From Eledone cirrhosa (lineage: Eukaryota): DNA of 64,000 bases. Both the position numbers and the translations under genes were made by a program. The stretch spans positions 267,902,001-267,966,000 of the forward strand of contig OZ024741.1 in NCBI GenBank assembly GCA_964016885.1, in the 5' to 3' direction. Positions 14,607 through 63,038 of the stretch are shown in pieces. The notes beneath the pieces were generated by a model. The model worked only from the letters and a program-made list of their open reading frames with translations, made no database searches and was not told the origin of the DNA. Position 1 is the first letter of the stretch. Every line of letters starts with the position of its first letter.

Positions 14607-14666
<60 letters not shown>

Positions 14667-14959
14667 AAAAACAAATAACGAAACGAAATTAAATTTCGTT
14701 TCGTTTGTAACTCACTTTTGTATGACTGACGCTTAAACAATTAAGTTAAAAATGTACATCCACATATGTATACTGAAATACTAGTATGCATATGAATACA
14801 CACACGTGTACATATGTAGATGTACCGAGTTTTTCACTGGACACTTTACTGTGAGTGTCCAGCTATTCTGTATGTAAACACACAGACAAACCGGTTTTTA
14901 GAGTCATACTGGTTTTCGAGGAAACACCTTTCCTCTATTCTCCAGAAAGCCAGACAAGG

Positions 14960-15004
14960 AATATTGGACTAGTTTCGATGTTGTTACATCTCATCAGCAA
15001 TATT
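14960..15004 (-). ncRNA. Type I hammerhead ribozyme (also at 15426, 15892, 16358, 16824)
   Basis: Minus strand reads AAUAUUG-CUGAUGA-GAUG-UAACAA-CAUC-GAAAC-UA-GUC/CAAUAUU. Perfect 7-bp stem I, 4-bp stem II, full core and a GUC cleavage triplet. Confidence 0.95.
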
Positions 15005-15063
15005 TACCTATCTTCCGGCCTTTCTAGAGAATCGTAAAAGCACATATCGTTATATGCTTTTTC

Positions 15064-15098
15064 TATGAAAATTAGTAGTGGGCAGACTAATTTGCATA
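15064..15098 (-). promoter_or_regulatory. Octamer-containing inverted repeat conserved between the 466- and 474-bp units
   Basis: tatgaaaatta-N13-taatttgcata with ATTTGCAT at 15090-15097. The counterpart in the 474-bp unit is at 56323-56358. Function is inferred only. Confidence 0.4.
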
Positions 15099-17295
15099 GA
15101 GCGTGAGTACGTACCGGTTCAGCGGAGACGATAAAAACAAATAACGAAACGAAATTAAATTTCGTTTCGTTTGTAACTCACTTTTGTATGACTGACGCTT
15201 AAACAATTAAGTTAAAAATGTACATCCACATATGTATACTGAAATACTAGTATGCATATGAATACACACACGTGTACATATGTAGATGTACCGAGTTTTT
15301 CACTGGACACTTTACTGTGAGTGTCCAGCTATTCTGTATGTAAACACACAGACAAACCGGTTTTTAGAGTCATACTGGTTTTCGAGGAAACACCTTTCCT
15401 CTATTCTCCAGAAAGCCAGACAAGGAATATTGGACTAGTTTCGATGTTGTTACATCTCATCAGCAATATTTACCTATCTTCCGGCCTTTCTAGAGAATCG
15501 TAAAAGCACATATCGTTATATGCTTTTTCTATGAAAATTAGTAGTGGGCAGACTAATTTGCATAGAGCGTGAGTACATACCGGTTCAGCGGAGACGATAA
15601 AAACAAATAACGAAACGAAATTAAATTTCGTTTCGTTTGTAACTCACTTTTGTATGACTGACGCTTAAACAATTAAGTTAAAAATGTACATCCACATATG
15701 TATACTGAAATACTAGTATGCATATGAATACACACACGTGTACATATGTAGATGTACCGAGTTTTTCACTGGACACTTTACTGTGAGTGTCCAGCTATTC
15801 TGTATGTAAACACACAGACAAACCGGTTTTTAGAGTCATACTGGTTTTCGAGGAAACACCTTTCCTCTATTCTCCAGAAAGCCAGACAAGGAATATTGGA
15901 CTAGTTTCGATGTTGTTACATCTCATCAGCAATATTTACCTATCTTCCGGCCTTTCTAGAGAATCGTAAAAGCACATATCGTTATATGCTTTTTCTATGA
16001 AAATTAGTAGTGGGCAGACTAATTTGCATAGAGCGTGAGTACGTACCGGTTCAGCGGAGACGATAAAAACAAATAACGAAACGAAATTAAATTTCGTTTC
16101 GTTTGTAACTCACTTTTGTATGACTGACGCTTAAACAATTAAGTTAAAAATGTACATCCACATATGTATACTGAAATACTAGTATGCATATGAATACACA
16201 CACGTGTACATATGTAGATGTACCGAGTTTTTCACTGGACACTTTACTGTGAGTGTCCAGCTATTCTGTATGTAAACACACAGACAAACCGGTTTTTAGA
16301 GTCATACTGGTTTTCGAGGAAACACCTTTCCTCTATTCTCCAGAAAGCCAGACAAGGAATATTGGACTAGTTTCGATGTTGTTACATCTCATCAGCAATA
16401 TTTACCTATCTTCCGGCCTTTCTAGAGAATCGTAAAAGCACATATCGTTATATGCTTTTTCTATGAAAATTAGTAGTGGGCAGACTAATTTGCATAGAGC
16501 GTGAGTACGTACCGGTTCAGCGGAGACGATAAAAACAAATAACGAAACGAAATTAAATTTCGTTTCGTTTGTAACTCACTTTTGTATGACTGACGCTTAA
16601 ACAATTAAGTTAAAAATGTACATCCACATATGTATACTGAAATACTAGTATGCATATGAATACACACACGTGTACATATGTAGATGTACCGAGTTTTTCA
16701 CTGGACACTTTACTGTGAGTGTCCAGCTATTCTGTATGTGAACACACAGACAAACCGGTTTTTAGAGTCATACTGGTTTTCGAGGAAACACCTTTCCTCT
16801 ATTCTCCAGAAAGCCAGACAAGGAATATTGGACTAGTTTCGATGTTGTTACATCTCATCAGCAATATTTACCTATCTTCCGGCCTTTCTAGAGAATCGTA
16901 AAAGCACATATCGTTATATGCTTTTTCTATGAAAATTAGTAGTGGGCAGACTAATTTGCATAGAGCGTGAGTACGTACCGGTTCAGCGGAGGCGATAAAA
17001 ACAAATAACGAAACGAAATTAAATTTCGTTTCGTTTGTAACTCACTTTTGTATGACTGACGCTTAAACAATTAAGTTAAAAATGTACATCCACATATGTA
17101 TACTGAAATACTAGTATGCATATGAATACACACACGTGTACATATGTAGATGTACCGAGTTTTTCACTGGACACTTTACTGTGAGTGTCCAGCTATTCTG
17201 TATGTAAACACACAGACAAACCGGTTTTTAGAGTCATACTGGTTTTAACTTAATTATATATATATGAATATATATATATATATATATATGAATAT

Positions 17296-20079: not shown

Positions 20080-20160
20080 TATTAATATATATATATATAT
20101 ATATATATATTAATATATGTATATTAATATATATATATATATATATATAATTAATATATA

Positions 20161-20195
<35 letters not shown>

Positions 20196-20491
20196 TATAT
20201 ATATATATTAATATATATGAATATATATATATATATATTATATATATATATATATTAATATATATGAATATATTATATATGAATATATATATATTAATAT
20301 ATATATATATATATTAATATATATATATTAATATATATATATATATATAATATATAATATATATATTAATATATATATATATATATATTAATATATATGA
20401 ATATAATATATGAATATATATATATGAATATATATATATAATATAATATATATATATATATATGAATATATATATATTGAATATATATATA

Positions 20492-20529
<38 letters not shown>

Positions 20530-20582
20530 TATATATATATTAATATATATATATATATATATATGAATATATATATATGAAT

Positions 20583-20626
<44 letters not shown>

Positions 20627-20683
20627 GAATATATATATATAATATATATATATAATATATATATATATATGAATATAAATATA

Positions 20684-20727
<44 letters not shown>

Positions 20728-20922
20728 TATATATATATTAATATATATATATTAATATATATATATTAATATATATTAATATATATATATATATATATGT
20801 ATTAATATATATATATTAATATATATATATTAATATATATTAATATATATATATATATATATTAATATATATATATTAATATATATATTAATATATATTA
20901 ATATATATATATATATGTATTA

Positions 20923-20958
<36 letters not shown>

Positions 20959-21189
20959 TAATATATTAATATATATATATATTAATATATATTAATATAT
21001 ATATATATATTAATATATATATATATATATATTAATATATTAATATATATATATATTAATATATATTAATATATATATATGTATTAATATATATATATAT
21101 ATTAATATATATATATTAATATATTAATATATATATATATTAATATATATATATATTAATATATATATATATATATTAATATATATATA

Positions 21190-21241
<52 letters not shown>

Positions 21242-21587
21242 ATTAATATATATATATATTAATATATATATTTATATATATATATATTAATATATATATA
21301 TATTAATATATATATATATTAATATATATATATATTAATATATATATATATATATATATTAATATATATATATATATATATATATATTAATATATATATA
21401 TATTAATATATATATATATATATATATTAATATATATATAAATTAATATATATATTAATATATATATATTAATATATATATATATTAATATATATATTTA
21501 TTAATATATATATATTAATATATATATATATTAATATATATATATATTAACATATATATTTATATTTATATATATATATATTTATAT

Positions 21588-21768
21588 ATAACGAAGGAAA
21601 TGTGGTAAGGAACCAGGTGGACCATAACGCACCAAAGTACTCAATACTTGAGGTAGTAGAGTGGGTAATAGGAACCAGTAAGACCCCGACAGCTGAGCTT
21701 AATTCTAAGTCCAGAATTAGCCGTCGAAACGGCTTGAGCTCAGCTGTCGGGGTCTTACTGGTTCCTAT
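21588..21768. mobile_element. Small fold-back family copy
   Basis: ataggaaccagtaagaccccgacagctgagct...agctcagctgtcggggtcttactggttcctat forms inverted arms, with an ~80-bp unpaired left extension. Confidence 0.8.
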
Positions 21769-21771
21769 ATT

Positions 21772-21808
<37 letters not shown>

Positions 21809-21941
21809 ATTTATATATATAAATATTTATATATATATATATTTATATATATATATATTTATATATATATATATTTATATATATATATATTTATATATAT
21901 ATATATTTATATATATATATTTATATATATTTATATATATT

Positions 21942-21974
<33 letters not shown>

Positions 21975-22096
21975 ATTTATATATATTTATATATATTTAT
22001 ATATATTTATATATATATTTATATATATATATATTTATATATATTAATATATATTTATATATATATTTATATATATATATATATATTTATATATAT

Positions 22097-22134
<38 letters not shown>

Positions 22135-22415
22135 ATTTATATATATTAATATATATTTATATATATATTTATATATATATATATTTATATATATTAATAT
22201 ATATATATATTAATATATATTTATATATATATTTATATATATATATTAATATATATTTATATATATATTTATATATATATATTAATATATATTTATATAT
22301 ATATTTATATATATATATATTTATATATATATATATTTATATATATTAATATAAATATATATTAATATATATTTATATATATATATATATTTATATATAT
22401 TAATATATATATATA

Positions 22416-22449
<34 letters not shown>

Positions 22450-22609
22450 TATATATATATATATATATATTAATATATATATATATGAATATAGACATAG
22501 AATATTCGAAAATATTCTGTATGTTTATAATAAACATTTTGAAGACCTAATCGCTATAGAATAGAATACGTCACGTATTACAATTAGATTCTCGATAAAA
22601 GCAAGGGAA

Positions 22610-22652
22610 GTAATCTACGCGTTTCATTCTTGTTAGAATTCATCAGGACTAC
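22610..22652 (-). ncRNA. Type I hammerhead ribozyme (7 minus-strand copies every 310 bp, to 24470)
   Basis: GUAGUC-CUGAUGA-AUUC-UAACAA-GAAU-GAAAC-GC-GUA/GAUUAC. Stem I is extended by the 16-bp attctcgataaaagca / tgcttttatcgagaat pairing. Confidence 0.93.
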
Positions 22653-24731
22653 ATATCCAGTGCTTTTATCGAGAATGACACAGCTAGAGACTTATAGAAT
22701 ACTTAGCTGTGTACAGGAACTGGTTTGAAAGAGCGGTTGCCGGTCCGGCAGAAATTAGAAATTGGAATAAATGCTCTGAAATAGCGATATATATATGAAT
22801 ATAGACATAGAATATTCGAAAATATTCTGTATGTTTATAATAAACATTTTGAAGACCTAATCGCTATAGAATAGAATACGTCACGTATTACAATTAGATT
22901 CTCGATAAAAGCAAGGGAAGTAATCTACGCGTTTCATTCTTGTTAGAATTCATCAGGACTACATATCCAGTGCTTTTATCGAGAATGACACAGCTAGAGA
23001 CTTATAGAATACTTAGCTGTGTACAGGAACTGGTTTGAAAGAGCGGTTGCCGGTCCGGCAGAAATTAGAAATTGGAATAAATGCTCTGAAATAGCGATAT
23101 ATATATGAATATAGACATAGAATATTCGAAAATATTCTGTATGTTTATAATAAACATTTTGAAGACCTAATCGCTATAGAATAGAATACGTCACGTATTA
23201 CAATTAGATTCTCGATAAAAGCAAGGGAAGTAATCTACGCGTTTCATTCTTGTTAGAATTCATCAGGACTACATATCCAGTGCTTTTATCGAGAATGACA
23301 CAGCTAGAGACTTATAGAATACTTAGCTGTGTACAGGAACTGGTTTGAAAGAGCGGTTGCCGGTCCGGCAGAAATTAGAAATTGGAATAAATGCTCTGAA
23401 ATAGCGATATATATATGAATATAGACATAGAATATTCGAAAATATTCTGTATGTTTATAATAAACATTTTGAAGACCTAATCGCTATAGAATAGAATACG
23501 TCACGTATTACAATTAGATTCTCGATAAAAGCAAGGGAAGTAATCTACGCGTTTCATTCTTGTTAGAATTCATCAGGACTACATATCCAGTGCTTTTATC
23601 GAGAATGACACAGCTAGAGACTTATAGAATACTTAGCTGTGTACAGGAACTGGTTTGAAAGAGCGGTTGCCGGTCCGGCAGAAATTAGAAATTGGAATAA
23701 ATGCTCTGAAATAGCGATATATATATGAATATAGACATAGAATATTCGAAAATATTCTGTATGTTTATAATAAACATTTTGAAGACCTAATCGCTATAGA
23801 ATAGAATACGTCACGTATTACAATTAGATTCTCGATAAAAGCAAGGGAAGTAATCTACGCGTTTCATTCTTGTTAGAATTCATCAGGACTACATATCCAG
23901 TGCTTTTATCGAGAATGACACAGCTAGAGACTTATAGAATACTTAGCTGTGTACAGGAACTGGTTTGAAAGAGCGGTTGCCGGTCCGGCAGAAATTAGAA
24001 ATTGGAATAAATGCTCTGAAATAGCGATATATATATGAATATAGACATAGAATATTCGAAAATATTCTGTATGTTTATAATAAACATTTTGAAGACCTAA
24101 TCGCTATAGAATAGAATACGTCACGTATTACAATTAGATTCTCGATAAAAGCAAGGGAAGTAATCTACGCGTTTCATTCTTGTTAGAATTCATCAGGACT
24201 ACATATCCAGTGCTTTTATCGAGAATGACACAGCTAGAGACTTATAGAATACTTAGCTGTGTACAGGAACTGGTTTGAAAGAGCGGTTGCCGGTCCGGCA
24301 GAAATTAGAAATTGGAATAAATGCTCTGAAATAGCGATATATATATGAATATAGACATAGAATATTCGAAAATATTCTGTATGTTTATAATAAACATTTT
24401 GAAGACCTAATCGCTATAGAATAGAATACGTCACGTATTACAATTAGATTCTCGATAAAAGCAAGGGAAGTAATCTACGCGTTTCATTCTTGTTAGAATT
24501 CATCAGGACTACATATCCAGTGCTTTTATCGAGAATGACACAGCTAGAGACTTATAGAATACTTAGCTGTGTACAGGAACTGGTTTGAAAGAGCGGTTGC
24601 CGGTCCGGCAGAAATTAGAAATTGGAATAAATGCTCTGAAATAGCGATATATATATGAATATAGACATAGAATATTCGAAAATATTCTGTATGTCTCTAG
24701 CTGTGTCATTCTCGATAAAAGCACTGGATAT

Positions 24732-24774
24732 GTAGTCCTGATGAATTCTAACAAGAATGAAACGCGTAGATTAC
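24732..24774 (+). ncRNA. Type I hammerhead ribozyme (also at 25042 and 25352)
   Basis: gtagtcctgatgaattctaacaagaatgaaacgcgtagattac is read directly on the plus strand. Confidence 0.93.
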
Positions 24775-25625
24775 TTCCCTTGCTTTTATCGAGAATCTAA
24801 TTGTAATACGTGACGTATTCTATTCTATAGCGATTAGGTCTTCAAAATGTTTATTATAAACATACAGAATATTTTCGAATATTCTATGTCTATATTCATA
24901 TATATATCGCTATTTCAGAGCATTTATTCCAATTTCTAATTTCTGCCGGACCGGCAACCGCTCTTTCAAACCAGTTCCTGTACACAGCTAAGTATTCTAT
25001 AAGTCTCTAGCTGTGTCATTCTCGATAAAAGCACTGGATATGTAGTCCTGATGAATTCTAACAAGAATGAAACGCGTAGATTACTTCCCTTGCTTTTATC
25101 GAGAATCTAATTGTAATACGTGACGTATTCTATTCTATAGCGATTAGGTCTTCAAAATGTTTATTATAAACATACAGAATATTTTCGAATATTCTATGTC
25201 TATATTCATATATATATCGCTATTTCAGAGCATTTATTCCAATTTCTAATTTCTGCCGGACCGGCAACCGCTCTTTCAAACCAGTTCCTGTACACAGCTA
25301 AGTATTCTATAAGTCTCTAGCTGTGTCATTCTCGATAAAAGCACTGGATATGTAGTCCTGATGAATTCTAACAAGAATGAAACGCGTAGATTACTTCCCT
25401 TGCTTTTATCGAGAATCTAATTGTAATACGTGACGTATTCTATTCTATAGCGATTAGGTCTTCAAAATGTTTATTATAAACATACAGAATATTTTCGAAT
25501 ATTCTATGTCTATATTCATATATATATCGCTATTTCAGAGCATTTATTCCAATTTCTAATATATATATATATATATTTATATATATTAATATATATATAT
25601 ATTAATATATATATATATATATATA

Positions 25626-25698
<73 letters not shown>

Positions 25699-25802
25699 TA
25701 TATATATATATATATTAATATATATATATATATATTAATATATATAAATATATATTAATATATATATATATATTGTTATACTTTGGGAGGGTCATGTTGC
25801 CA

Positions 25803-25845
<43 letters not shown>

Positions 25846-25932
25846 TATATATATATATATTAATATATATAAATATATATTAATATATATATATATATTG
25901 TTATACTTTGGGAGGGTCATGTTGCCAATATG

Positions 25933-25979
<47 letters not shown>

Positions 25980-25988
25980 GCCAATATG

Positions 25989-26020
<32 letters not shown>

Positions 26021-26068
26021 CATATACGATTTCAGATAAAGTATCTTGCTAAACAAATTCAGAAACGA

Positions 26069-26100
<32 letters not shown>

Positions 26101-26689
26101 TATATATATAAATATATATATAAATATATATATTAATATATATATATATATTAATATATATATATATTAATATATATATATTAATATATATATATATTAA
26201 TATATATATATATTAATATATATATATATATATATATTAACATATATATATATATTAATATATATATATATATTAATATATATATATATATTAATATCCA
26301 CCTCTTTTATACCATAAACGTGGTATTGTCTTTGCGCGTAATTGTTTTTCACCGCTCCTATTAATGACGTATCTTATTCGTTTTTTCCCGTTCTTTGCCA
26401 GCGAACGTTTCCACGAACCAAAGTATCGTCTTCCTGTCTTCCTTTTTTGAAATATACACTTCTGCATTTAGAGATTGACTTTGTTAGTTTCAGAAGATCC
26501 CGTTAAGGGTGAAAGCAGCGATTCTTTGCTTAAACTTTAATCTGTTATTTTAAGTATATTTGCTCTACGGTTCTTATATATTTGCTATATATTTATCCTT
26601 ATCGAGCCCTCTTTGGATTTTAGTCTTGAAATTTATTATTATTACTATTTGGCTCCCTCGGTTGAGCACACTACTGACTTATATTCATC

Positions 26690-38242: not shown

Positions 38243-38416
38243 TAGGAATGAGTAGGACGTTTCGACGGCTAATTCTTGTCCAGAATTAGCCGTCGAAACG
38301 GCTTGAGCTCAGCCGTCGGGGTCCTACTGGTTCCTATTACCCACTCTCCTACCCTAAGTATTGAGTACTTTGGTGCGTTATGGTCCACCTGGTTCCTTAC
38401 CACATTTCCTCCATTA
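38243..38416. mobile_element. Small fold-back family copy
   Basis: cgtttcgacggctaattct...agaattagccgtcgaaacg inverted arms, followed by the conserved ...ggtccacctggttccttaccacatttcctccatta end. Confidence 0.8.
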
Positions 38417-42397: not shown

Positions 42398-45300
42398 AAG
42401 AGCGAAAATGCCAAAGTTAAAGTCAAATTCACCTCGTGGACGAGAATGCGAGCACTCCTCTTTGTTTCGTCCGCGGATGGCTAACATAACCCTATCTCCT
42501 CCCGCCCCCACCACCCCCACCCTCCAAACGCAACCCAAACCTTCAGAGTTGGTACCATAAATGTAGGCACCCTAAAGGGTCGCGCTAACGAGGTTGTAGA
42601 GATGCTTGAACGTAAGGAGGTCGATGTTTGTTGTATTCAAGAGACCAGGTGGAGGGGTGGGTCTGCTAGATTCATTGAGGGTAAAAAACGATGTTATAAG
42701 CTTTTCTGGGTGGGAAACGACGATGGGCTGGGTGGAGTAGGAATCATGGTAGCAGAAAAGTGGGCAGATAAGATAATAGACGTAAATAGAGTGAACGACA
42801 GAATAATTAAAATAAGACTTGTCCTCAATAGAACTACGGTGACAGTAATATCTGCGTACGCACCCCAATCCGGACTGCCCGGCACTATAAAAGACAGATT
42901 CTATGAGACACTGTTGCTAACTACCTCCCAAATATCTGACAGTGACTATATAATTATTGCAGGCGACCTAAATGGTCACGTTGGACAACATTGTGACGGC
43001 TACGACGAAATCCATGGAGGCTATGGGTTTGGTACTAGAAATGAGGAAGGCTCCAGAATCCTGGAATACTGTGATGCAAATAACCTAACTATCTGTAACA
43101 CTAACTTCAAAAAACGTGACAATCACCTGATTACCTATAGATCCGGGGAACACACAAGCCAGGTAGATTATATCCTTACCAGAAGACGTGACAGAGTGTC
43201 TGTTGTAAACACTAAATCCCTCCCCCATGAAGAATGCACCTCCCAACATAGACTGATAATTAGCGACCTCATAGTCAGGACGAGACGTACCCGACAGCAG
43301 AAGAGGACTATCCTCAGGAGGAAAATATGGAAACTAAAGGACCCCACAGCCAGAAATAAATTTCAAAGCATATTACTTGATGCTTTCGACAGTAAGGAAG
43401 AGCATCTAGAATCGGACAATATAGAGGGACAGTGGAAATTTCTGAAAGCAAACCTGCTGTTGGCGACAGACGAGGTCTGTGGCTGGAGCAGGCCTGTAGG
43501 CAGGAGGAGAGTAACATGGTGGTGGAACAATAGGGTGGAGGGGTCAATTAAGGCCAAAAAGCAGGCTTGGAAAGTATGGCGGGATGGGGGAAGTAGAGTA
43601 GACTATCAAGTGGCCAGGAGGAAAGCTAGGAGAGAAGTGTACTTAGCAAGAAGGGAAGCGGAGGAAAGAAAGTTCAAGCATGTTCTACAACGCGATGACC
43701 AAAAACGTGAGGTGTTCAGGATTGCCAGGCAATGCGTCAAGGAAAACCGTGATATTGTCGGGGAGAAGTGTGTACTTAACGATGATGGCATACTTGCCAT
43801 CACCGACACTGATAAGAAGGTAGCTTGGAAGTGTCACTATGAAAGGCTACTAAATGAGGAGAATAAATGGGAGAAAGACAGTCTCCCCCATATCGACCCG
43901 ATAGAGGGACCAGCAGTGTTAGTCGAGGGGAGTATAATAAGTAAGGCAATCAAGGATATGAAGACTGGTAAGGCGGCTGGGCCTTCGGAAATAGTTGCTG
44001 AGATGCTGAAGGCATCTGGCACGGTGGGACACACCATGGTCACCCGCATAGTTAACCAAGTCGTACAGAATGGGGTTGTTCCGAAGGACTGGCATAGCAG
44101 CATCATCGTTAACTGTTATAAGGGTAAAGGAGACGCCCTAGATAGGAGTAACTATAGAGGCATTAAATTAATCGACCAGGTCATGAAGGTCACGGAAAAA
44201 GTAATAGCGCAACTAATCAGAGAGAGAATTGATCTAGATGAAATGCAGTTCGGGTTTGTGTCAGGCAAAAGCACCACAGACGCTCTTTTCATAGTACGAC
44301 AACTACAGGAGAAGTACCTAGCTAAAGGTAAACCCCTCTACTTAGCTTTTGTCGACCTGGAGAAAGCCTTCGACAGAGTCCCCCGCTCCATTATCTGGTG
44401 GGCTCTTAGAAAACTAGGCGTTGACGAATGGCTTGTGAGGGCTATACAAGCCATGTATAAAGAAACAGTCAGCAAGGTTAGAATTAACAACGAATATAGT
44501 GAAGAGTTTAGCGTAAAAGTTGGCGTCCATCAGGGCTCTGTTCTCAGCCCCCTACTATTTATTATTGCCCTTCAGGCTATAACAGAGGAGTTCAAGACAG
44601 GCTGCCCATGGGAACTCCTATACGCAGACGACCTGACACTCATAGCGGAATCAATGGCCGAGCTAGAGAAGAAATTCCAAACATGGAAGCACGGCCTAGA
44701 GTCAAAAGGACTTAAAATTAACCTGGCTAAGACCAAAGTTCTAGTTTGTAGGAAAGAAAACAAGGCGGCGGTCCCTTCTGGGAAATGGTCGTGCTCGGTA
44801 TGTAGGAAAGGCGTAGGTAGAAACTCCATCTTATGTCCTAAATGCAAAGTATGGGTGCATAATAGATGTAGTGGGATCACAGGTAAGCTAACTAAGAACA
44901 TAGACTTTACATGTGGCCGATGTTCTGGTGCAATAAGTAGCAGCAAGTGCCCACAAAATACTAGCTCTTTCAATTGCGCAGAGGGTTCTATAGAAATAGT
45001 GGACAGCTTCCGTTACCTGGGCGATAAAATCAGCAGTGGGGGAGGGTGCTCTGAAAGTACTGTAGCTAGAGTCAGAACTGGTTGGAAAAAGTTCAGAGAG
45101 CTTATACCACTATTAGCTGCTAAAGGGTTCTCCCTAAAAATGAAAGGCAGGTTGTACGATGCCTGCATACGAACAGCAATGTTGCATGGTAGTGAGACCT
45201 GGGCATTGTGTGCAGAGGATATACGCAGACTAGAGAGGAACGAAGCTTGCATGCTCCGCTGGATGTGTAACAGTAATATACGTGAACGGCAAAGCATAAA

Positions 45301-45945
45301 CGAACTAAGGAAAAAATTAGAGATAAGAGGGATCAGATGTTGTTTACTCGAGAGAAGGCTGCGTTGGTATGGACACGTGATGCGCATGAAAGTCGATAGC
45401 TGTATTACAAAGTGCAGGGCAATAAAGATAGACGGTAGCCACGGAATAGGCAGACCTAGAAAAACATGGGATGAGCTGATAAACTCCAACCTCATACACT
45501 TACACCTCTCCAAGACAATGTCACTGGACCGTGACCTTTGGCGGTACTCAGTAACAGAGAAGACCCGCCTTGCCAGTAGGCATCTCTAACAAACTACACC
45601 CCGTCCCGCCACCACCCCCACCCCATCCACACCACCCCGTTCCATGTAAAGTTATGTTGGTGCCGCGCCATCCAGGCCGAAACAAACGAGATCGTGTAGG
45701 TGTCACGACAAAAAAACACACAGTCCACGCTGTAATGTGGCCGTGTAGGCAACACGGTAAAAACCTCCCAGACCCACACTGTAAATGTGGTTGGTGTTAG
45801 GAAGGGCATCCAACTGTAGAAAACCTGCCAGACAGTCCTATGCGAGCAAGACAATCACTCTTGCCTCAAGTGGGACTACCCCCGTCCAAACCCATGCAAG
45901 CGTGGAACACGGACGTTAAACGTTGATGATGATGATGATGATGAT
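42398..45945 (+). mobile_element. RTE LINE family A, near full length
   Basis: Single long APE-RT ORF, ~330-bp 3' UTR and (GAT)n tail, with (TA)n on both sides. Confidence 0.97.
42602..45589 (+). CDS. RTE LINE APE endonuclease / reverse transcriptase (995 aa; frame open from 42485)
   Basis: CIQETRW, SAYAPQ, AGDLNGH, QVDYIL and SQH mark the APE domain. DLEKAFD, QGSVLSP, YADD and YLG mark the RT. RRLRWYGH and GRPRKTW mark the RTE C-terminus. Confidence 0.95.
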   Translation: MLERKEVDVCCIQETRWRGGSARFIEGKKRCYKLFWVGNDDGLGGVGIMVAEKWADKIIDVNRVNDRIIKIRLVLNRTTVTVISAYAPQSGLPGTIKDRFYETLLLTTSQISDSDYIIIAGDLNGHVGQHCDGYDEIHGGYGFGTRNEEGSRILEYCDANNLTICNTNFKKRDNHLITYRSGEHTSQVDYILTRRRDRVSVVNTKSLPHEECTSQHRLIISDLIVRTRRTRQQKRTILRRKIWKLKDPTARNKFQSILLDAFDSKEEHLESDNIEGQWKFLKANLLLATDEVCGWSRPVGRRRVTWWWNNRVEGSIKAKKQAWKVWRDGGSRVDYQVARRKARREVYLARREAEERKFKHVLQRDDQKREVFRIARQCVKENRDIVGEKCVLNDDGILAITDTDKKVAWKCHYERLLNEENKWEKDSLPHIDPIEGPAVLVEGSIISKAIKDMKTGKAAGPSEIVAEMLKASGTVGHTMVTRIVNQVVQNGVVPKDWHSSIIVNCYKGKGDALDRSNYRGIKLIDQVMKVTEKVIAQLIRERIDLDEMQFGFVSGKSTTDALFIVRQLQEKYLAKGKPLYLAFVDLEKAFDRVPRSIIWWALRKLGVDEWLVRAIQAMYKETVSKVRINNEYSEEFSVKVGVHQGSVLSPLLFIIALQAITEEFKTGCPWELLYADDLTLIAESMAELEKKFQTWKHGLESKGLKINLAKTKVLVCRKENKAAVPSGKWSCSVCRKGVGRNSILCPKCKVWVHNRCSGITGKLTKNIDFTCGRCSGAISSSKCPQNTSSFNCAEGSIEIVDSFRYLGDKISSGGGCSESTVARVRTGWKKFRELIPLLAAKGFSLKMKGRLYDACIRTAMLHGSETWALCAEDIRRLERNEACMLRWMCNSNIRERQSINELRKKLEIRGIRCCLLERRLRWYGHVMRMKVDSCITKCRAIKIDGSHGIGRPRKTWDELINSNLIHLHLSKTMSLDRDLWRYSVTEKTRLASRHL

Positions 45946-46074: not shown

Positions 46075-49000
46075 ATCATCATCATCATCATCATCATCAC
46101 CGTTTTACGTCCGTTCTTCCACGCTAGCATGGGTTAGACGGGTTGTCCTGTTGTGGGCAGTGTCTGGTCGGCTGACCATGCCTTGCTCATACAGGAACTG
46201 ATCTGGCTTGATTTCTACAGCTGGATGCCCTTCCTAACACCAACCTCATTTACAGTGAGTGCTGGGTGCTTTTTCGTGGCGCCTACACGTCCACTTTACA
46301 GTGTGGGCTGGGTGCTTTTTTGCCGTGGCACCTCCACGACCACCTTGCGGTGGGGGGGGGGGGCATATTGTTTATATGCTTCAGCATGTACCCATGGGAG
46401 GTCGGGTACCCTGTATTACTGCGTGACGCCAGAAGTCACGGTCGTGTGTCATTGACTTTGAGAGGTGTAGTTGGGTAAGGTCGGCTTTTATCACCTCATC
46501 CCAAGTCATCTTGGGTCTCCCCACTCCGCGGTTTCCATCAACTTCTAGTGCTCTGCACCTTTTTATGCAGCTGTCATCCTTCATACGCATCACATGTCCA
46601 TACCAGCGTAACCGCCTCTCCTGCACGCAGCATTTGATTCCTCTTATGCTCAGTCTCTCTCTCAATTCATTTATGCTTTGTCGTTCACGTATATTACTGT
46701 TACACATCCATCGGAGCATGCAGGCTTCGTTTCTCTCTAATCTACGTAAGTCTTCCACCTTCAGCGCCCAGGTCTCACTACCATGCAACATCGCTGTTCG
46801 GATACACGCATCATACAGTCTGCCTTTCATTCTGAGGGAGAAGCCTTTTGCAGCTAGCAGTGGTAGTAGTTCCCTAAACTTCTTCCATCCCGTTCTTACC
46901 CTAGTTATTGTACTTTCTGAGCACCCACCTCCGTTGCTAATTCGGTCACCTAGGTAGCAGAAGCTGTCTACTGTTTCTACAGGGCCCTCCCAGAGATTGG
47001 TGGTACTTGTTTCCTGTGGCTGTTTGCTTGCTGTTTCAGCACAGCTGCTGCATGTGAATCCTACATTCTTAATTAAGCTTCCTGAGATCCCGCTACATCT
47101 CTTGTGTACCCATTGTTTGCATTTGGGGCAAAGAATGGAGTTCCTACCTACACCTTTCCTACATACTGAGCAAGGCCATTTCCCTGAGGGGATCTGGGTT
47201 CTGTTTTCTCGTCTACTTATAAGGACCTTAGTCTTTGTCATGTTGACTTTGAGGCCCTTTCTCTCTAGTCCCTGCTTCCAGGTTTGGAATTTATTCTCTA
47301 GTTCTACCATAGATTCAGCTATGAGTGCGAGGTCATCAGCATACAGGAGTTCCCATGGGCATCCGGTCTTAAACTCCTCCGTTATTGCCTGCAGGACTAT
47401 GATGAACAGGAGAGGGCTAAGAACAGAGCCCTGGTGGACCCCAACCTGTACGCTAAATTCCTCGCTATACTCATTGCCAATCCTAACTTTGCTGACTGCT
47501 CCCCTATACATGGCTTGTACCGCTTTCACAAGCCATTCATCTACTCCTAGTTTTCTAAGAGCCCACCAGATTACTGCACGTGGAACTCTGTCAAAGGCTT
47601 TCTCAAGGTCGACAAATGCCAAGTAGAGTGGCTTACTTTTAGCTAGGTACTTTTCCTGTAATTGCCTCACAAGGAAGAGCGCATCAGTGGTGCCTTTCCC
47701 TGGAACAAACCCAAATTGCATCTCGTCTATATTCACCCGGTCCCTAATCAGCTGTGCTATAACTCTTTCTGTTACTTTCATGACCTGGTCCATCAACTTT
47801 ATACCTCTATAGTTTCCTCTATCTAGTGCATCGCCTTTACCTTTGTAGCAGTTGACAATGATGCTACTGCACCAATCTTTTGGTATGGCCCCCTCTAGTA
47901 TTACCTGGTTAACGATACGTGTGGTTATAGTGTGACCTACAGACCCAGATGCCTTCAGCATCTCGGCAGCTATACCCGATGGACCGGTTGCCTTCCCTAT
48001 CTTCATATCTCTGATTGCCTTACTTACTACACTGCCGCTGACTTGTACTGCTGGTCCCTCTATAGGGTCTACGTGGGGTAGGGTCTCTTCTTCCCATGCA
48101 TTCTCCTCATTTAGTAATCTATCATAATGACTCTTCCATGCATCTTTCTTCTCAGCACTTGTGAGGGCAAGCTCACCTTTATCATTCCGGATACACTTCT
48201 CTCCAATGACATCACAACTATCTCTGACACACTGCCTCGCAATCTTGAATACCTCCTGTTTCTGGTCCTCACGTTGTAAAACATGCTTGAATTTTCTATC
48301 CTCTGCTTCCCTCCTAGCTAAGTATACTTGTCGCCTAGCTTCCCTCTTGGTCTCTATGTAATGTACCCTGCTCCCCCCGTTCTTCCATTCTTTCCATGCC
48401 TGTCTCTTGGCCTTGACTGCTTCATCTACCTTATTGTTCCACCACCAAGTCACTCTCCTCCTGCTTGAGGTCTTACTCCAGCCACAAACCTCATCCGTCG
48501 CCTCTAGTAAGTTATTTTTTAGGAACTCCCAGTTCTCTTCTACGTTAAATGTCTCTATCTGTTCTTCTTTACTGTCGTAGGCGTTGAGTAAAATATCTTT
48601 AAATCTGTTACTGGTTGAGGGGACTTTCAGCTTCCAGATCTTTCTTCTCCAGGTTGGCCTCTGTTTCAGGGCTCGTCTAGTTCTGACCGTGAGGTCGCTG
48701 ACAACTAAGCTATGTTGGGATGTACATTCCTCACTAGGGAAGGCTTTTGTGTTTACGACCGTCCATCTGTCACGTCCTCTGATGAGGATAAAATCTAACT
48801 GACTAGAGTGCTCCCCTGATCTATAGGTGATCAGGTGGTTGTCGGGTTTTTTAAAGTTTGTGTTACATATCGACATGTCATTGGCGTCGCAGAATTCTAG
48901 AAGTCTGAATCCTTCCTCATTCCTTGTGCCAACTCCATGGCCTCCATGTACTCTATTGAAGCCGTCGCAGTGTTTACCTACGTGTCCGTTAAAATCTCCT

Positions 49001-53263: not shown

Positions 53264-53266
<3 letters not shown>

Positions 53267-53383
53267 ACGAAGGAAATGTGGTAAGGGACCAGGTGGACCA
53301 TAACGCACCAAAGTACTCAATACTTGAGGTAGTAGAGTGGATAATAGGAACCAGTAAGACCCCTGGGGTCTTACTGGTTCCTA
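53264..53383. mobile_element. Small fold-back family copy
   Basis: Near-identical to 21588-21690. It ends in the perfect palindrome taggaaccagtaagacccc-t-ggggtcttactggttccta. Confidence 0.8.
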
Positions 53384-53421
53384 TATATAATATATATATA
53401 TATATATAGTATATATATATA

Positions 53422-55935: not shown

Positions 55936-55984
<49 letters not shown>

Positions 55985-56042
55985 GTAAGTATGCATGTAT
56001 ACGTACATACATATATGTATACAGACGTACAGTAGCATCCAC

Positions 56043-56073
<31 letters not shown>

Positions 56074-56231
56074 CATATGCATACAGGTACACATACATAT
56101 ATGCACGTATCAGTTTAGCGGCGCTTATTATAACGTCGCTTTGTTCGTTTGTAAACAAACTGAACAGCCTGAATTTATGCCATACGGTGTTAAGGCAACC
56201 ACGTCACCTTTTTGTTCAACACTGACACAGG

Positions 56232-56276
56232 AACGATGTACTAGTTTCAAGCTTGTTAGCTATCATCAGCACCGTT
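56232..56276 (-). ncRNA. Type I hammerhead ribozyme (9 minus-strand copies every 474 bp, to 60024)
   Basis: AACGGUG-CUGAUGA-U-AGC-UAACAA-GCU-U-GAAAC-UA-GUA/CAUCGUU. Stem I is 7 bp with one G-U pair. Confidence 0.93.
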
Positions 56277-56516
56277 TACCCATCTGCCAGATAGTTGAAC
56301 GTTCGAAAGTATATACTTTCCTTATGAAAATTAACGGCTGAGCAGCCTAATTTGCATATTGAGTGAGTTAAATCGGTAAGGCATACCGAAAACGATAAAT
56401 TGAAACAAAATGAAAACGAAATTTCATTTCTCACTCTTAGTATGGCACTTACTTAAATGTAAGTATGCATGTATACGTACATACATATATGTATACAGAC
56501 GTACAGTAGCATCCAC

Positions 56517-56547
<31 letters not shown>

Positions 56548-56990
56548 CATATGCATACAGGTACACATACATATATGCACGTATCAGTTTAGCGGCGCTT
56601 ATTATAACGTCGCTTTGTTCGTTTGTAAACAAACTGAACAGCCTGAATTTATGCCATACGGTGTTAAGGCAACCACGTCACCTTTTTGTTCAACACTGAC
56701 ACAGGAACGATGTACTAGTTTCAAGCTTGTTAGCTATCATCAGCACCGTTTACCCATCTGCCAGATAGTTGAACGTTCGAAAGTATATACTTTCCTTATG
56801 AAAATTAACGGCTGAGCAGCCTAATTTGCATATTGAGTGAGTTAAATCGGTAAGGCATACCGAAAACGATAAATTGAAACAAAATGAAAACGAAATTTCA
56901 TTTCTCACTCTTAGTATGGCACTTACTTAAATGTAAGTATGCATGTATACGTACATACATATATGTATACAGACGTACAGTAGCATCCAC

Positions 56991-57021
<31 letters not shown>

Positions 57022-57464
57022 CATATGCATACAGGTACACATACATATATGCACGTATCAGTTTAGCGGCGCTTATTATAACGTCGCTTTGTTCGTTTGT
57101 AAACAAACTGAACAGCCTGAATTTATGCCATACGGTGTTAAGGCAACCACGTCACCTTTTTGTTCAACACTGACACAGGAACGATGTACTAGTTTCAAGC
57201 TTGTTAGCTATCATCAGCACCGTTTACCCATCTGCCAGATAGTTGAACGTTCGAAAGTATATACTTTCCTTATGAAAATTAACGGCTGAGCAGCCTAATT
57301 TGCATATTGAGTGAGTTAAATCGGTAAGGCATACCGAAAACGATAAATTGAAACAAAATGAAAACGAAATTTCATTTCTCACTCTTAGTATGGCACTTAC
57401 TTAAATGTAAGTATGCATGTATACGTACATACATATATGTATACAGACGTACAGTAGCATCCAC

Positions 57465-57495
<31 letters not shown>

Positions 57496-57938
57496 CATAT
57501 GCATACAGGTACACATACATATATGCACGTATCAGTTTAGCGGCGCTTATTATAACGTCGCTTTGTTCGTTTGTAAACAAACTGAACAGCCTGAATTTAT
57601 GCCATACGGTGTTAAGGCAACCACGTCACCTTTTTGTTCAACACTGACACAGGAACGATGTACTAGTTTCAAGCTTGTTAGCTATCATCAGCACCGTTTA
57701 CCCATCTGCCAGATAGTTGAACGTTCGAAAGTATATACTTTCCTTATGAAAATTAACGGCTGAGCAGCCTAATTTGCATATTGAGTGAGTTAAATCGGTA
57801 AGGCATACCGAAAACGATAAATTGAAACAAAATGAAAACGAAATTTCATTTCTCACTCTTAGTATGGCACTTACTTAAATGTAAGTATGCATGTATACGT
57901 ACATACATATATGTATACAGACGTACAGTAGCATCCAC

Positions 57939-57969
<31 letters not shown>

Positions 57970-58412
57970 CATATGCATACAGGTACACATACATATATGC
58001 ACGTATCAGTTTAGCGGCGCTTATTATAACGTCGCTTTGTTCGTTTGTAAACAAACTGAACAGCCTGAATTTATGCCATACGGTGTTAAGGCAACCACGT
58101 CACCTTTTTGTTCAACACTGACACAGGAACGATGTACTAGTTTCAAGCTTGTTAGCTATCATCAGCACCGTTTACCCATCTGCCAGATAGTTGAACGTTC
58201 GAAAGTATATACTTTCCTTATGAAAATTAACGGCTGAGCAGCCTAATTTGCATATTGAGTGAGTTAAATCGGTAAGGCATACCGAAAACGATAAATTGAA
58301 ACAAAATGAAAACGAAATTTCATTTCTCACTCTTAGTATGGCACTTACTTAAATGTAAGTATGCATGTATACGTACATACATATATGTATACAGACGTAC
58401 AGTAGCATCCAC

Positions 58413-58443
<31 letters not shown>

Positions 58444-58886
58444 CATATGCATACAGGTACACATACATATATGCACGTATCAGTTTAGCGGCGCTTATTA
58501 TAACGTCGCTTTGTTCGTTTGTAAACAAACTGAACAGCCTGAATTTATGCCATACGGTGTTAAGGCAACCACGTCACCTTTTTGTTCAACACTGACACAG
58601 GAACGATGTACTAGTTTCAAGCTTGTTAGCTATCATCAGCACCGTTTACCCATCTGCCAGATAGTTGAACGTTCGAAAGTATATACTTTCCTTATGAAAA
58701 TTAACGGCTGAGCAGCCTAATTTGCATATTGAGTGAGTTAAATCGGTAAGGCATACCGAAAACGATAAATTGAAACAAAATGAAAACGAAATTTCATTTC
58801 TCACTCTTAGTATGGCACTTACTTAAATGTAAGTATGCATGTATACGTACATACATATATGTATACAGACGTACAGTAGCATCCAC

Positions 58887-58917
<31 letters not shown>

Positions 58918-59360
58918 CATATGCATACAGGTACACATACATATATGCACGTATCAGTTTAGCGGCGCTTATTATAACGTCGCTTTGTTCGTTTGTAAAC
59001 AAACTGAACAGCCTGAATTTATGCCATACGGTGTTAAGGCAACCACGTCACCTTTTTGTTCAACACTGACACAGGAACGATGTACTAGTTTCAAGCTTGT
59101 TAGCTATCATCAGCACCGTTTACCCATCTGCCAGATAGTTGAACGTTCGAAAGTATATACTTTCCTTATGAAAATTAACGGCTGAGCAGCCTAATTTGCA
59201 TATTGAGTGAGTTAAATCGGTAAGGCATACCGAAAACGATAAATTGAAACAAAATGAAAACGAAATTTCATTTCTCACTCTTAGTATGGCACTTACTTAA
59301 ATGTAAGTATGCATGTATACGTACATACATATATGTATACAGACGTACAGTAGCATCCAC

Positions 59361-59391
<31 letters not shown>

Positions 59392-59834
59392 CATATGCAT
59401 ACAGGTACACATACATATATGCACGTATCAGTTTAGCGGCGCTTATTATAACGTCGCTTTGTTCGTTTGTAAACAAACTGAACAGCCTGAATTTATGCCA
59501 TACGGTGTTAAGGCAACCACGTCACCTTTTTGTTCAACACTGACACAGGAACGATGTACTAGTTTCAAGCTTGTTAGCTATCATCAGCACCGTTTACCCA
59601 TCTGCCAGATAGTTGAACGTTCGAAAGTATATACTTTCCTTATGAAAATTAACGGCTGAGCAGCCTAATTTGCATATTGAGTGAGTTAAATCGGTAAGGC
59701 ATACCGAAAACGATAAATTGAAACAAAATGAAAACGAAATTTCATTTCTCACTCTTAGTATGGCACTTACTTAAATGTAAGTATGCATGTATACGTACAT
59801 ACATATATGTATACAGACGTACAGTAGCATCCAC

Positions 59835-59865
<31 letters not shown>

Positions 59866-60474
59866 CATATGCATACAGGTACACATACATATATGCACGT
59901 ATCAGTTTAGCGGCGCTTATTATAACGTCGCTTTGTTCGTTTGTAAACAAACTGAACAGCCTGAATTTATGCCATACGGTGTTAAGGCAACCACGTCACC
60001 TTTTTGTTCAACACTGACACAGGAACGATGTACTAGTTTCAAGCTTGTTAGCTATCATCAGCACCGTTTACCCATCTGCCAGATAGTTGAACGTTCGAAA
60101 GTATATACTTTCCTTATGAAAATTAACGGCTGAGCAGCCTAATTTGCATATTGAGTGAGTTAAATCGGTAAGGCATACCGAAAACGATAAATTGAAACAA
60201 AATGAAAACGAAATTTCATTTCTCACTCTTAGTATGGCACTTACTTAAATGTAAGTATGCATGTATACGTACATACATATATGTATACAGACGTACAGTA
60301 GCATCCTGTGTCAGTTCCTGTGTCAGTGTTGAACAAAAAGGTGACGTGGTTGCCTTAACACCGTATGGCATAAATTCAGGCTGTTCAGTTTGTTTACAAA
60401 CGAACAAAGCGACGTTATAATAAGCGCCGCTAAACTGATACGTGCATATATGTATGTGTACCTGTATGCATATG

Positions 60475-60505
<31 letters not shown>

Positions 60506-60745
60506 GTGGATGCTACTGTACGTCTGTATACACATATGTATGTACGTATACATGCATACTTACATTTAAGTAAGTGCCATACTAAGAGTGAGAAATGAAA
60601 TTTCGTTTTCATTTTGTTTCAATTTATCGTTTTCGGTATGCCTTACCGATTTAACTCACTCAATATGCAAATTAGGCTGCTCAGCCGTTAATTTTCATAA
60701 GGAAAGTATATACTTTCGAACGTTCAACTATCTGGCAGATGGGTA

Positions 60746-60790
60746 AACGGTGCTGATGATAGCTAACAAGCTTGAAACTAGTACATCGTT
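60746..60790 (+). ncRNA. Type I hammerhead ribozyme (also at 61220, 61694, 62168, 62642)
   Basis: aacggtgctgatgatagctaacaagcttgaaactagtacatcgtt is read directly on the plus strand. Confidence 0.93.
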
Positions 60791-60948
60791 CCTGTGTCAG
60801 TGTTGAACAAAAAGGTGACGTGGTTGCCTTAACACCGTATGGCATAAATTCAGGCTGTTCAGTTTGTTTACAAACGAACAAAGCGACGTTATAATAAGCG
60901 CCGCTAAACTGATACGTGCATATATGTATGTGTACCTGTATGCATATG

Positions 60949-60979
<31 letters not shown>

Positions 60980-61422
60980 GTGGATGCTACTGTACGTCTG
61001 TATACATATATGTATGTACGTATACATGCATACTTACATTTAAGTAAGTGCCATACTAAGAGTGAGAAATGAAATTTCGTTTTCATTTTGTTTCAATTTA
61101 TCGTTTTCGGTATGCCTTACCGATTTAACTCACTCAATATGCAAATTAGGCTGCTCAGCCGTTAATTTTCATAAGGAAAGTATATACTTTCGAACGTTCA
61201 ACTATCTGGCAGATGGGTAAACGGTGCTGATGATAGCTAACAAGCTTGAAACTAGTACATCGTTCCTGTGTCAGTGTTGAACAAAAAGGTGACGTGGTTG
61301 CCTTAACACCGTATGGCATAAATTCAGGCTGTTCAGTTTGTTTACAAACGAACAAAGCGACGTTATAATAAGCGCCGCTAAACTGATACGTGCATATATG
61401 TATGTGTACCTGTATGCATATG

Positions 61423-61453
<31 letters not shown>

Positions 61454-61896
61454 GTGGATGCTACTGTACGTCTGTATACATATATGTATGTACGTATACA
61501 TGCATACTTACATTTAAGTAAGTGCCATACTAAGAGTGAGAAATGAAATTTCGTTTTCATTTTGTTTCAATTTATCGTTTTCGGTATGCCTTACCGATTT
61601 AACTCACTCAATATGCAAATTAGGCTGCTCAGCCGTTAATTTTCATAAGGAAAGTATATACTTTCGAACGTTCAACTATCTGGCAGATGGGTAAACGGTG
61701 CTGATGATAGCTAACAAGCTTGAAACTAGTACATCGTTCCTGTGTCAGTGTTGAACAAAAAGGTGACGTGGTTGCCTTAACACCGTATGGCATAAATTCA
61801 GGCTGTTCAGTTTGTTTACAAACGAACAAAGCGACGTTATAATAAGCGCCGCTAAACTGATACGTGCATATATGTATGTGTACCTGTATGCATATG

Positions 61897-61927
<31 letters not shown>

Positions 61928-62370
61928 GTGGATGCTACTGTACGTCTGTATACATATATGTATGTACGTATACATGCATACTTACATTTAAGTAAGTGCC
62001 ATACTAAGAGTGAGAAATGAAATTTCGTTTTCATTTTGTTTCAATTTATCGTTTTCGGTATGCCTTACCGATTTAACTCACTCAATATGCAAATTAGGCT
62101 GCTCAGCCGTTAATTTTCATAAGGAAAGTATATACTTTCGAACGTTCAACTATCTGGCAGATGGGTAAACGGTGCTGATGATAGCTAACAAGCTTGAAAC
62201 TAGTACATCGTTCCTGTGTCAGTGTTGAACAAAAAGGTGACGTGGTTGCCTTAACACCGTATGGCATAAATTCAGGCTGTTCAGTTTGTTTACAAACGAA
62301 CAAAGCGACGTTATAATAAGCGCCGCTAAACTGATACGTGCATATATGTATGTGTACCTGTATGCATATG

Positions 62371-62401
<31 letters not shown>

Positions 62402-62844
62402 GTGGATGCTACTGTACGTCTGTATACATATATGTATGTACGTATACATGCATACTTACATTTAAGTAAGTGCCATACTAAGAGTGAGAAATGAAATTTC
62501 GTTTTCATTTTGTTTCAATTTATCGTTTTCGGTATGCCTTACCGATTTAACTCACTCAATATGCAAATTAGGCTGCTCAGCCGTTAATTTTCATAAGGAA
62601 AGTATATACTTTCGAACGTTCAACTATCTGGCAGATGGGTAAACGGTGCTGATGATAGCTAACAAGCTTGAAACTAGTACATCGTTCCTGTGTCAGTGTT
62701 GAACAAAAAGGTGACGTGGTTGCCTTAACACCGTATGGCATAAATTCAGGCTGTTCAGTTTGTTTACAAACGAACAAAGCGACGTTATAATAAGCGCCGC
62801 TAAACTGATACGTGCATATATGTATGTGTACCTGTATGCATATG

Positions 62845-62875
<31 letters not shown>

Positions 62876-63038
62876 GTGGATGCTACTGTACGTCTGTATA
62901 CATATATGTATGTACGTATACATGCATACTTACATTTAAGTAAGTGCCATACTAAGAGTGAGAAATGAAATTTCGTTTTCATTTTGTTTCAATTTATATA
63001 TATATATATATATATATTGTATATATATATATATATAT

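Follow-up and report, generated by a model that had tools for sequence, protein, structure and literature searches.

Retrozyme circles have been demonstrated, and PLEs have been named as candidates for retrozyme mobilization (Cervera and de la Pena 2020, PMC7229834), after PLE tandems had been proposed to be templated by circles (Cervera and de la Pena 2014, PMC4209133). More recently, the PLE case was built on co-occurrence and on a phylogeny of the PLE terminal repeat (pLTR), with later local expansion being favored (Li, Clavereau and Pollet 2026, 10.64898/2026.07.22.740005). PLEs themselves leave an inverted copy with a tail at one end and prefer (TA)n (PMC8557442), and their inversions have been explained by self-priming (Arkhipova et al. 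2013, PMC3846280). The protein of PAc, the Anolis Poseidon PLE, cuts and extends both strands; two internal start sites define the tail, and the start site does not differ between strands in vitro (Frangieh et al. 2024, PMC11167929). The main text of PMC11167929 mentions neither circles nor retrozymes.

The window, which is the whole 64,000-nt stretch of Eledone cirrhosa DNA analyzed here, contains arrays resembling the animal non-LTR retrozymes. Their units are non-coding tandems of 310-474 bp, each with one type I hammerhead and a short palindromic stem III, and the arrays are dispersed in a genome that also contains PLEs. Retrozymes are described as head-to-tail tandems in the accessible portions of PMC7229834 and Li et al. 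(2026), whereas those studied here are mostly head-to-head with two fixed ends; the terms "inverted," "target site," and "microsatellite" do not occur in the main text of PMC7229834. EN+ PLEs (accessible portions of PMC8557442 and PMC3846280) share with them the head-to-head copy, the tail at one end, the (TA)n location, an upstream hammerhead, and microhomology joints. The retrozymes differ from EN+ PLEs in being non-coding, in having multi-unit arms and tails of 26-76 nt depending on the family, and in the uniform distribution of their inner ends, which in PLEs are piled at the start site. The likeness to the PAc reaction in vitro extends to two start sites bracketing the tail, cutting and extension of both strands, an AT-rich target, and a predicted dimer; that reaction showed no strand difference in start site in the portion of PMC11167929 cited, whereas the genome examined here shows strictly one site-A and one site-B end per insertion (sites defined below). 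A search of the openly accessible literature turned up neither a description of retrozymes arrayed head-to-head nor a strict one-A, one-B rule. Mobilization of retrozymes by PLEs has already been proposed, and no evidence for it from insertion anatomy was found in the literature outside subscription papers.

The relevant features of the window are listed below. Positions in the 310-bp unit are numbered from the predicted hammerhead cleavage site (after 24768).

22477..24694, minus strand: left arm of the 310 array, 7.15 identical 310-bp units; outer 3' end at site A
24693..25560, plus strand: right arm of the 310 array, made of 2.80 identical units, with its outer 3' end at unit 172 (site B)
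24683..24694, no strand: head-to-head inner junction of the 310 array, unit 92 joined to unit 235
24723..24788, plus strand: type I hammerhead ribozyme whose short stem III is palindromic; cleavage predicted after 24768
25528..25560, plus strand: PLE-like "tail" between sites A and B, at the right outer end only
20085..22486, no strand: left (TA)n-rich target tract
25559..26291, no strand: right (TA)n-rich target tract
55980..60306, minus strand: left arm of the 474-bp retrozyme array, 9.1 units; site A end (259)
60304..62997, plus strand: right arm of the 474-bp retrozyme array, 5.7 units; site B end (318)
14664..17246, minus strand: array of 5.5 retrozyme units of 466 bp, not inverted, whose 3' end is at site B (303)
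21590..21770, no strand: small palindromic insertion from another family, head-to-head, within the left TA tract; ends offset by ~80 nt

The 310-bp unit is a type I hammerhead retrozyme. Each unit carries a hammerhead with a conserved core, stems I and II, and a short palindromic stem III, and the window array has 10 cores, one per unit (3 on the plus strand and 7 on the minus strand). The array consists of tandem non-coding units with at least two complete type I hammerheads, and such arrays are dispersed and multicopy and have no LTR features, as expected of a non-LTR retrozyme. One variant of the 310 ribozyme core has 3,923 exact matches in the 3.0-Gb Eledone cirrhosa genome. Searched at the Rfam gathering score, the window gave no match; the 310 ribozyme matched HH9 at 23 bits (E 0.004), under the gathering score of 52. 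Near-identical 310 sequence was also seen in runs labeled as 17 different organisms, which may reflect contamination, diet, or wider spread.

An earlier note on this DNA had described both the 310 and 474 arrays as having an antisense left arm and a sense right arm, and mapping of the two arrays bore this out, with 3' ends facing outward. The outer ends of the 310 array lie at unit 139, ambiguous to ~129 (window 22477-22486), and at 172, and those of the 474 array at 259 and 318; these positions reproduce the offsets of 33-43 nt and 59 nt given in the note, as well as its statement that neither outer end is at the cleavage site. The ambiguity at site A comes from an (AT)5 run within the unit at that point, and it extends over 10 nt because the allele at position 131, which is rare (47/52 insertions have the other), lengthens the (AT)n. 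The window B end is a minority variant (7/63); the mode is 165 (41/63), and the usual 310 offset is therefore 26-36 nt. The description of the ends as AT-rich with microhomology to TA held in part: all run into (TA)n, but the overlap at site B is 1-3 nt, weak, and not needed. The (TA)n flanks of the 310, 466, and 474 arrays make target-site duplications unreadable. Both 310 arms match the unit without mismatch (2218 nt in the left arm and 868 nt in the right) and meet at a 2-nt exact overlap within an imperfect 10/12 match of the two arms, and the 474 junction carries a short templated duplication. A search for autonomous PLE coding capacity within 22477-25560 found no non-repeat frame of at least 120 aa. 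The TA tracts hold other insertions as well. Palindromic mini-insertions of ~180-200 bp, with ends offset by ~80 nt, lie in (TA)n at window positions 21590-21770, 38258-38410, and 53266-53400; the center varies between copies of this family, which has matches in 52 fetched sequences. Recurrent ~35-bp insertions were seen at 25775-25810 and 25895-25930, and also beside three other loci (L033, L084, and L093).

Genome-wide, the outer 3' ends of 310 insertions use two fixed sites: A, at +126-139 after the cleavage site, and B, at +165-172. Counts were taken from fixed-length patterns only, because variable-gap patterns inflated the reverse-strand counts, and gave near-equal numbers of site-A (1,240) and site-B (1,344) ends. 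In the 186 Mb of contig C1 common to both end lists (90 A and 100 B ends, 50 of them unpaired), all 70 head-to-head pairs combined A with B and none was A+A or B+B, an outcome with a chance probability of 0.5^70 (~8e-22). Twenty unpaired ends were fetched; 14 belonged to inverted insertions with a variant partner (A+B), among them one with an 11-nt B arm (L196) and one whose junction contains a 270-nt insert (L197), while 5 were single-armed and 1 was at a gap. The first 12 loci, unselected for their ends, comprised 10 head-to-head, 2 single-armed, and 0 tail-to-tail arrays, and no tail-to-tail array was present among the first 100 core matches of 310 or of 466. TA was reached by 22 of the 24 outer ends in this unselected set plus the window. 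All 63 inverted insertions that were sequenced (41 picked as A+B pairs and 22 not preselected) had one end at 126-139 and the other at 154-172; the B end fell between 165 and 172 in 61 of them, and one of the two exceptions was shortened by a SNP. L197, L196, and L194 (assembly gap) stand outside the 63, and L031, with a complex junction, outside the junction statistics.

The other two families behaved similarly. In the 474 family, the end lists examined (37 A and 100 B ends) yielded 19 pairs, every one of them A+B; a few of the fetched loci had a second end outside both sites. The 466 ribozyme core has 1,633 matches in the genome; 17/20 fetched loci were inverted, of which 16 were A+B with an offset of ~70-75 and one had a non-standard end. 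The 466 and 474 units are ~70% alike over 120 nt across site B, a region in which B is preceded by a hairpin and followed by an octamer-like motif. An snRNA-type promoter role, as in newt satellite 2, is possible.

Autonomous PLEs in the same genome provided an internal control. GIY-YIG matches amounted to 10,596 candidates, and 150 were scored. One locus (L073) contains a 938-residue open frame with an RT, a C-x4-C-x2-C motif, and GIY-YIG at the C terminus; judged by this motif it is probably of Neptune/Nematis type, with the arrangement described in the accessible portion of PMC8557442. Resident PLE copies are head-to-head in (TA)n and have offset ends downstream of a hammerhead-like motif, the offset being ~35-65 nt, family by family. 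In the family represented by L073, L074, and L078, 18/20 A-anchored and 12/20 B-anchored insertions were inverted, and all 30 of these were A+B, in TA; the site-B pattern matched only 24 places, so pairing was taken from fetched sequence. Ends and polarity in the retrozymes and the autonomous PLEs were therefore far from random (A+B in 70/70, 19/19, 16/17 and, for the PLE, 30/30). The inner ends of the PLE control behaved differently from those of the retrozymes: 39 of 84 fell within 9 nt, ~30 nt after a TATA box, a pile-up that is expected as the mark of a linear RNA 5' end. Two of 86 PLE arms had been excluded (an old copy in L190 and an extra fragment in L228). Most copies of this PLE family (L078:6366-6374 region and L173-L232) are ~150-210-bp end stubs, which suggests that a short pLTR transcript behaves as a mobile element in its own right.

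The PLE-type double priming proposed in the earlier note is upheld by the two-site ends, the TA target, and the same architecture in autonomous RT/GIY-YIG PLEs. Its further claim of direct structural evidence for PLE mobilization survives as a shared signature but not as direct evidence. No pLTR homologous to the 310, 466, or 474 units was found in 50 GIY-YIG loci of the 10,596 candidates. Matches of 65-70% to the units at GIY-YIG loci were considered and proved to be retrozyme copies or relatives inserted nearby, not pLTRs. Given PLE-like anatomy and no pLTR homologue in the 50 loci, the units therefore appear to act as PLE substrates without established pLTR descent. The link between retrozymes and PLEs, which rests on the shared insertion signature, is supported, and the partner would be some PLE family. 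A distant (~68%) 310 relative keeps the core of the tail and ends at the homologous B site (L044:2433-2900, L089:8950-9130, and L073:290-700); from this sequence conservation, the tail is likely a recognition signal.

The arms and inner junctions of the 63 inverted 310 insertions were then compared. The longer arm was A in 31 and B in 32, arm lengths were uncorrelated (rho 0.12), both arms had at least 2 units in 40 insertions, and the longest arm reached 27 units. The 126 inner ends were uniform over the 310 unit (chi-square p 0.51), and the two inner ends of an insertion were unrelated to each other. The vicinity of the cleavage site was avoided, with 1 inner end within 5 nt against 4.5 expected, and 559 cleavage sites were read through in the arms. 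Apparent clusters of inner ends at unit 132 and 296 were an artefact of the window's rare alleles and disappeared when common alleles were allowed. Microhomology of at least 2 nt occurred at 30 of 47 flush junctions compared with 18% at random (p 6e-12), and 16/63 junctions contained 1-16 extra nt, often copied from nearby. This anatomy fits two cDNAs, one per target strand, joined via their 3' ends.

Several other routes to such inversions can be weighed against these data. The accessible portion of PMC3846280 attributes PLE inverted repeats to a single target-primed cDNA that folds back and self-primes at palindromes. A haplotype common to both arms would be expected from this process, as would the short templated, hairpin-like inserts at some junctions; however, a copied arm cannot outgrow its template or halt at the other fixed site, whereas either arm may be the longer here and the pair is always A+B, and the inner ends are tied neither to palindromes nor to each other. 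Priming twice is favored because either arm may exceed the other, each with its own fixed end, and fold-back, already largely refuted by arm-length symmetry, is very improbable. L1 twin priming uses two target primers and leaves outward 3' ends with microhomology at the inversion, and thus gives the same polarity as the head-to-head arrays. Its operation through the abundant APE-RT-PHD LINEs of the window, intact copies of which lie in the same TA tracts, is nevertheless hard to credit: both retrozyme sites are internal and fixed, where twin priming would fix one end, and no poly(A) or repeat tail accompanies them; each of the four examined LINE ends has a (GAT)n tail, which is absent from retrozyme ends; and the first retrozyme cDNA does not halt at the second primer, the B arm stopping at site A in 5/63 insertions versus 4.1 expected and not at the excess that a collision predicts. 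Nor do the units resemble LINE-dependent SINEs, as the window LINEs and the units share only one 16-nt chance match. Two LINE frames in the window (42485-45589, plus strand, 1,034 aa; 46381-49503, minus strand, 1,040 aa) have APE, RT, and a PHD finger; they are 75% alike and lie tail-to-tail around one TA tract with (GAT)n ends. An origin in long-read fold-back chimeras or assembly artefacts could be read into the 100% identity of the arms and into the window 310 inner junction, which was not bridged in four contig sets of one other sample. Chimeras, however, would not yield offset fixed ends, strict pairing, and unequal arms, and independent contig sets contained three other strand-switch joints (depth 5-35) and TA-tailed loose ends that map to A and B; one junction (L197) even holds a later 270-nt insertion. 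Independent data thus corroborated junctions at other loci but not the window junction itself, and an artefactual origin has a negligible probability.

PLE double priming of the retrozyme arrays is therefore regarded as highly likely, and the remaining alternative concerns its template. In each of the 52 insertions compared, which represent 23 haplotypes, the two arms agreed in haplotype, and in 13 of these a variant private among the 52, a sample of more than 1,300 insertions, was present in all units of both arms; sporadic variants numbered 65 in 133,670 nt (~0.05%). The one-unit bottleneck, together with inner ends that do not pile up at a 5' end, points to a circular monomer template, and we infer the circularity of the retrozyme RNA from insertion anatomy. 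The same double priming could instead take place on a linear multimer, as a long transcript left uncleaved, or on two copies of the RNA. Two insertions (L113 and L120, 2/52) have a single-unit variant in both arms at equal distance from the 3' end; this register match therefore argues for multimer templates, and against a monomer circle, in those two, and is a sign that both primers were on the same molecule, in register. Uncleaved RNA was also the main substrate in vitro (accessible portion of PMC11167929), and random truncation could give uniform inner ends too. As a general account, a linear multimer is unlikely, because private variants fixed in every unit in 13/52 insertions, against the sporadic rate, need a one-unit bottleneck and because, in contrast to the PLE control, the inner ends do not accumulate at any 5' end. 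A 19-unit arm in L104 has two variants recurring with a 7-unit period, which could reflect either a template of seven units or the duplication of a block at a later time. Two sequencing runs contained a single low-depth 340-nt self-joining contig of the 310 unit, which was kept out of the argument.

Collectively, these results make it probable that the head-to-head retrozyme arrays in (TA)n, with their A+B ends, arose from a PLE RT/GIY-YIG protein priming on both cut strands, mostly on circular retrozyme RNA. According to this model, arrays would be transcribed, self-cleave, and circularize to monomers, as is established in other retrozymes of animals. A PLE protein, probably a dimer, would bind the tail region and nick both (TA)n strands, and one 3'-OH would prime at A and the other at B. 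Each RT would travel around the circle and stop at a random point, so that the arms comprise multiple units and vary in length independently. The 3' ends of the two cDNAs would then anneal, either through 1-5 nt or by way of short templated inserts, and each cDNA would be copied from the other to give the second strands. Single-armed insertions could result where one priming was aborted. By extension, the balance tips slightly toward PLE integration being an asymmetric two-primer reaction, in which A and B are each used once on the same RNA and the cDNAs template each other; on a retrozyme circle, this would become double rolling-circle reverse transcription, with kilobase arrays born whole in one step.

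The identity of the retrozyme mobilizer, and whether the circle is an intermediate, have so far been argued from co-occurrence and phylogeny. In this genome, each family has over a thousand young insertions that bear a PLE-specific two-site signature, for which autonomous PLEs act as the internal control. The strict A+B rule limits the options for the later steps of PLE integration, namely the formation of inverted repeats, the tail, and the second strand, and it predicts exactly where synthesis should start in vitro, how the strands should differ, and that a circle should give multi-unit products. If the model is correct, the arrays, with arms of up to 27 units, would record in the genome that circular RNA is retrotransposed in animals and would offer a one-step origin for satellite arrays in place of slow unequal crossover.
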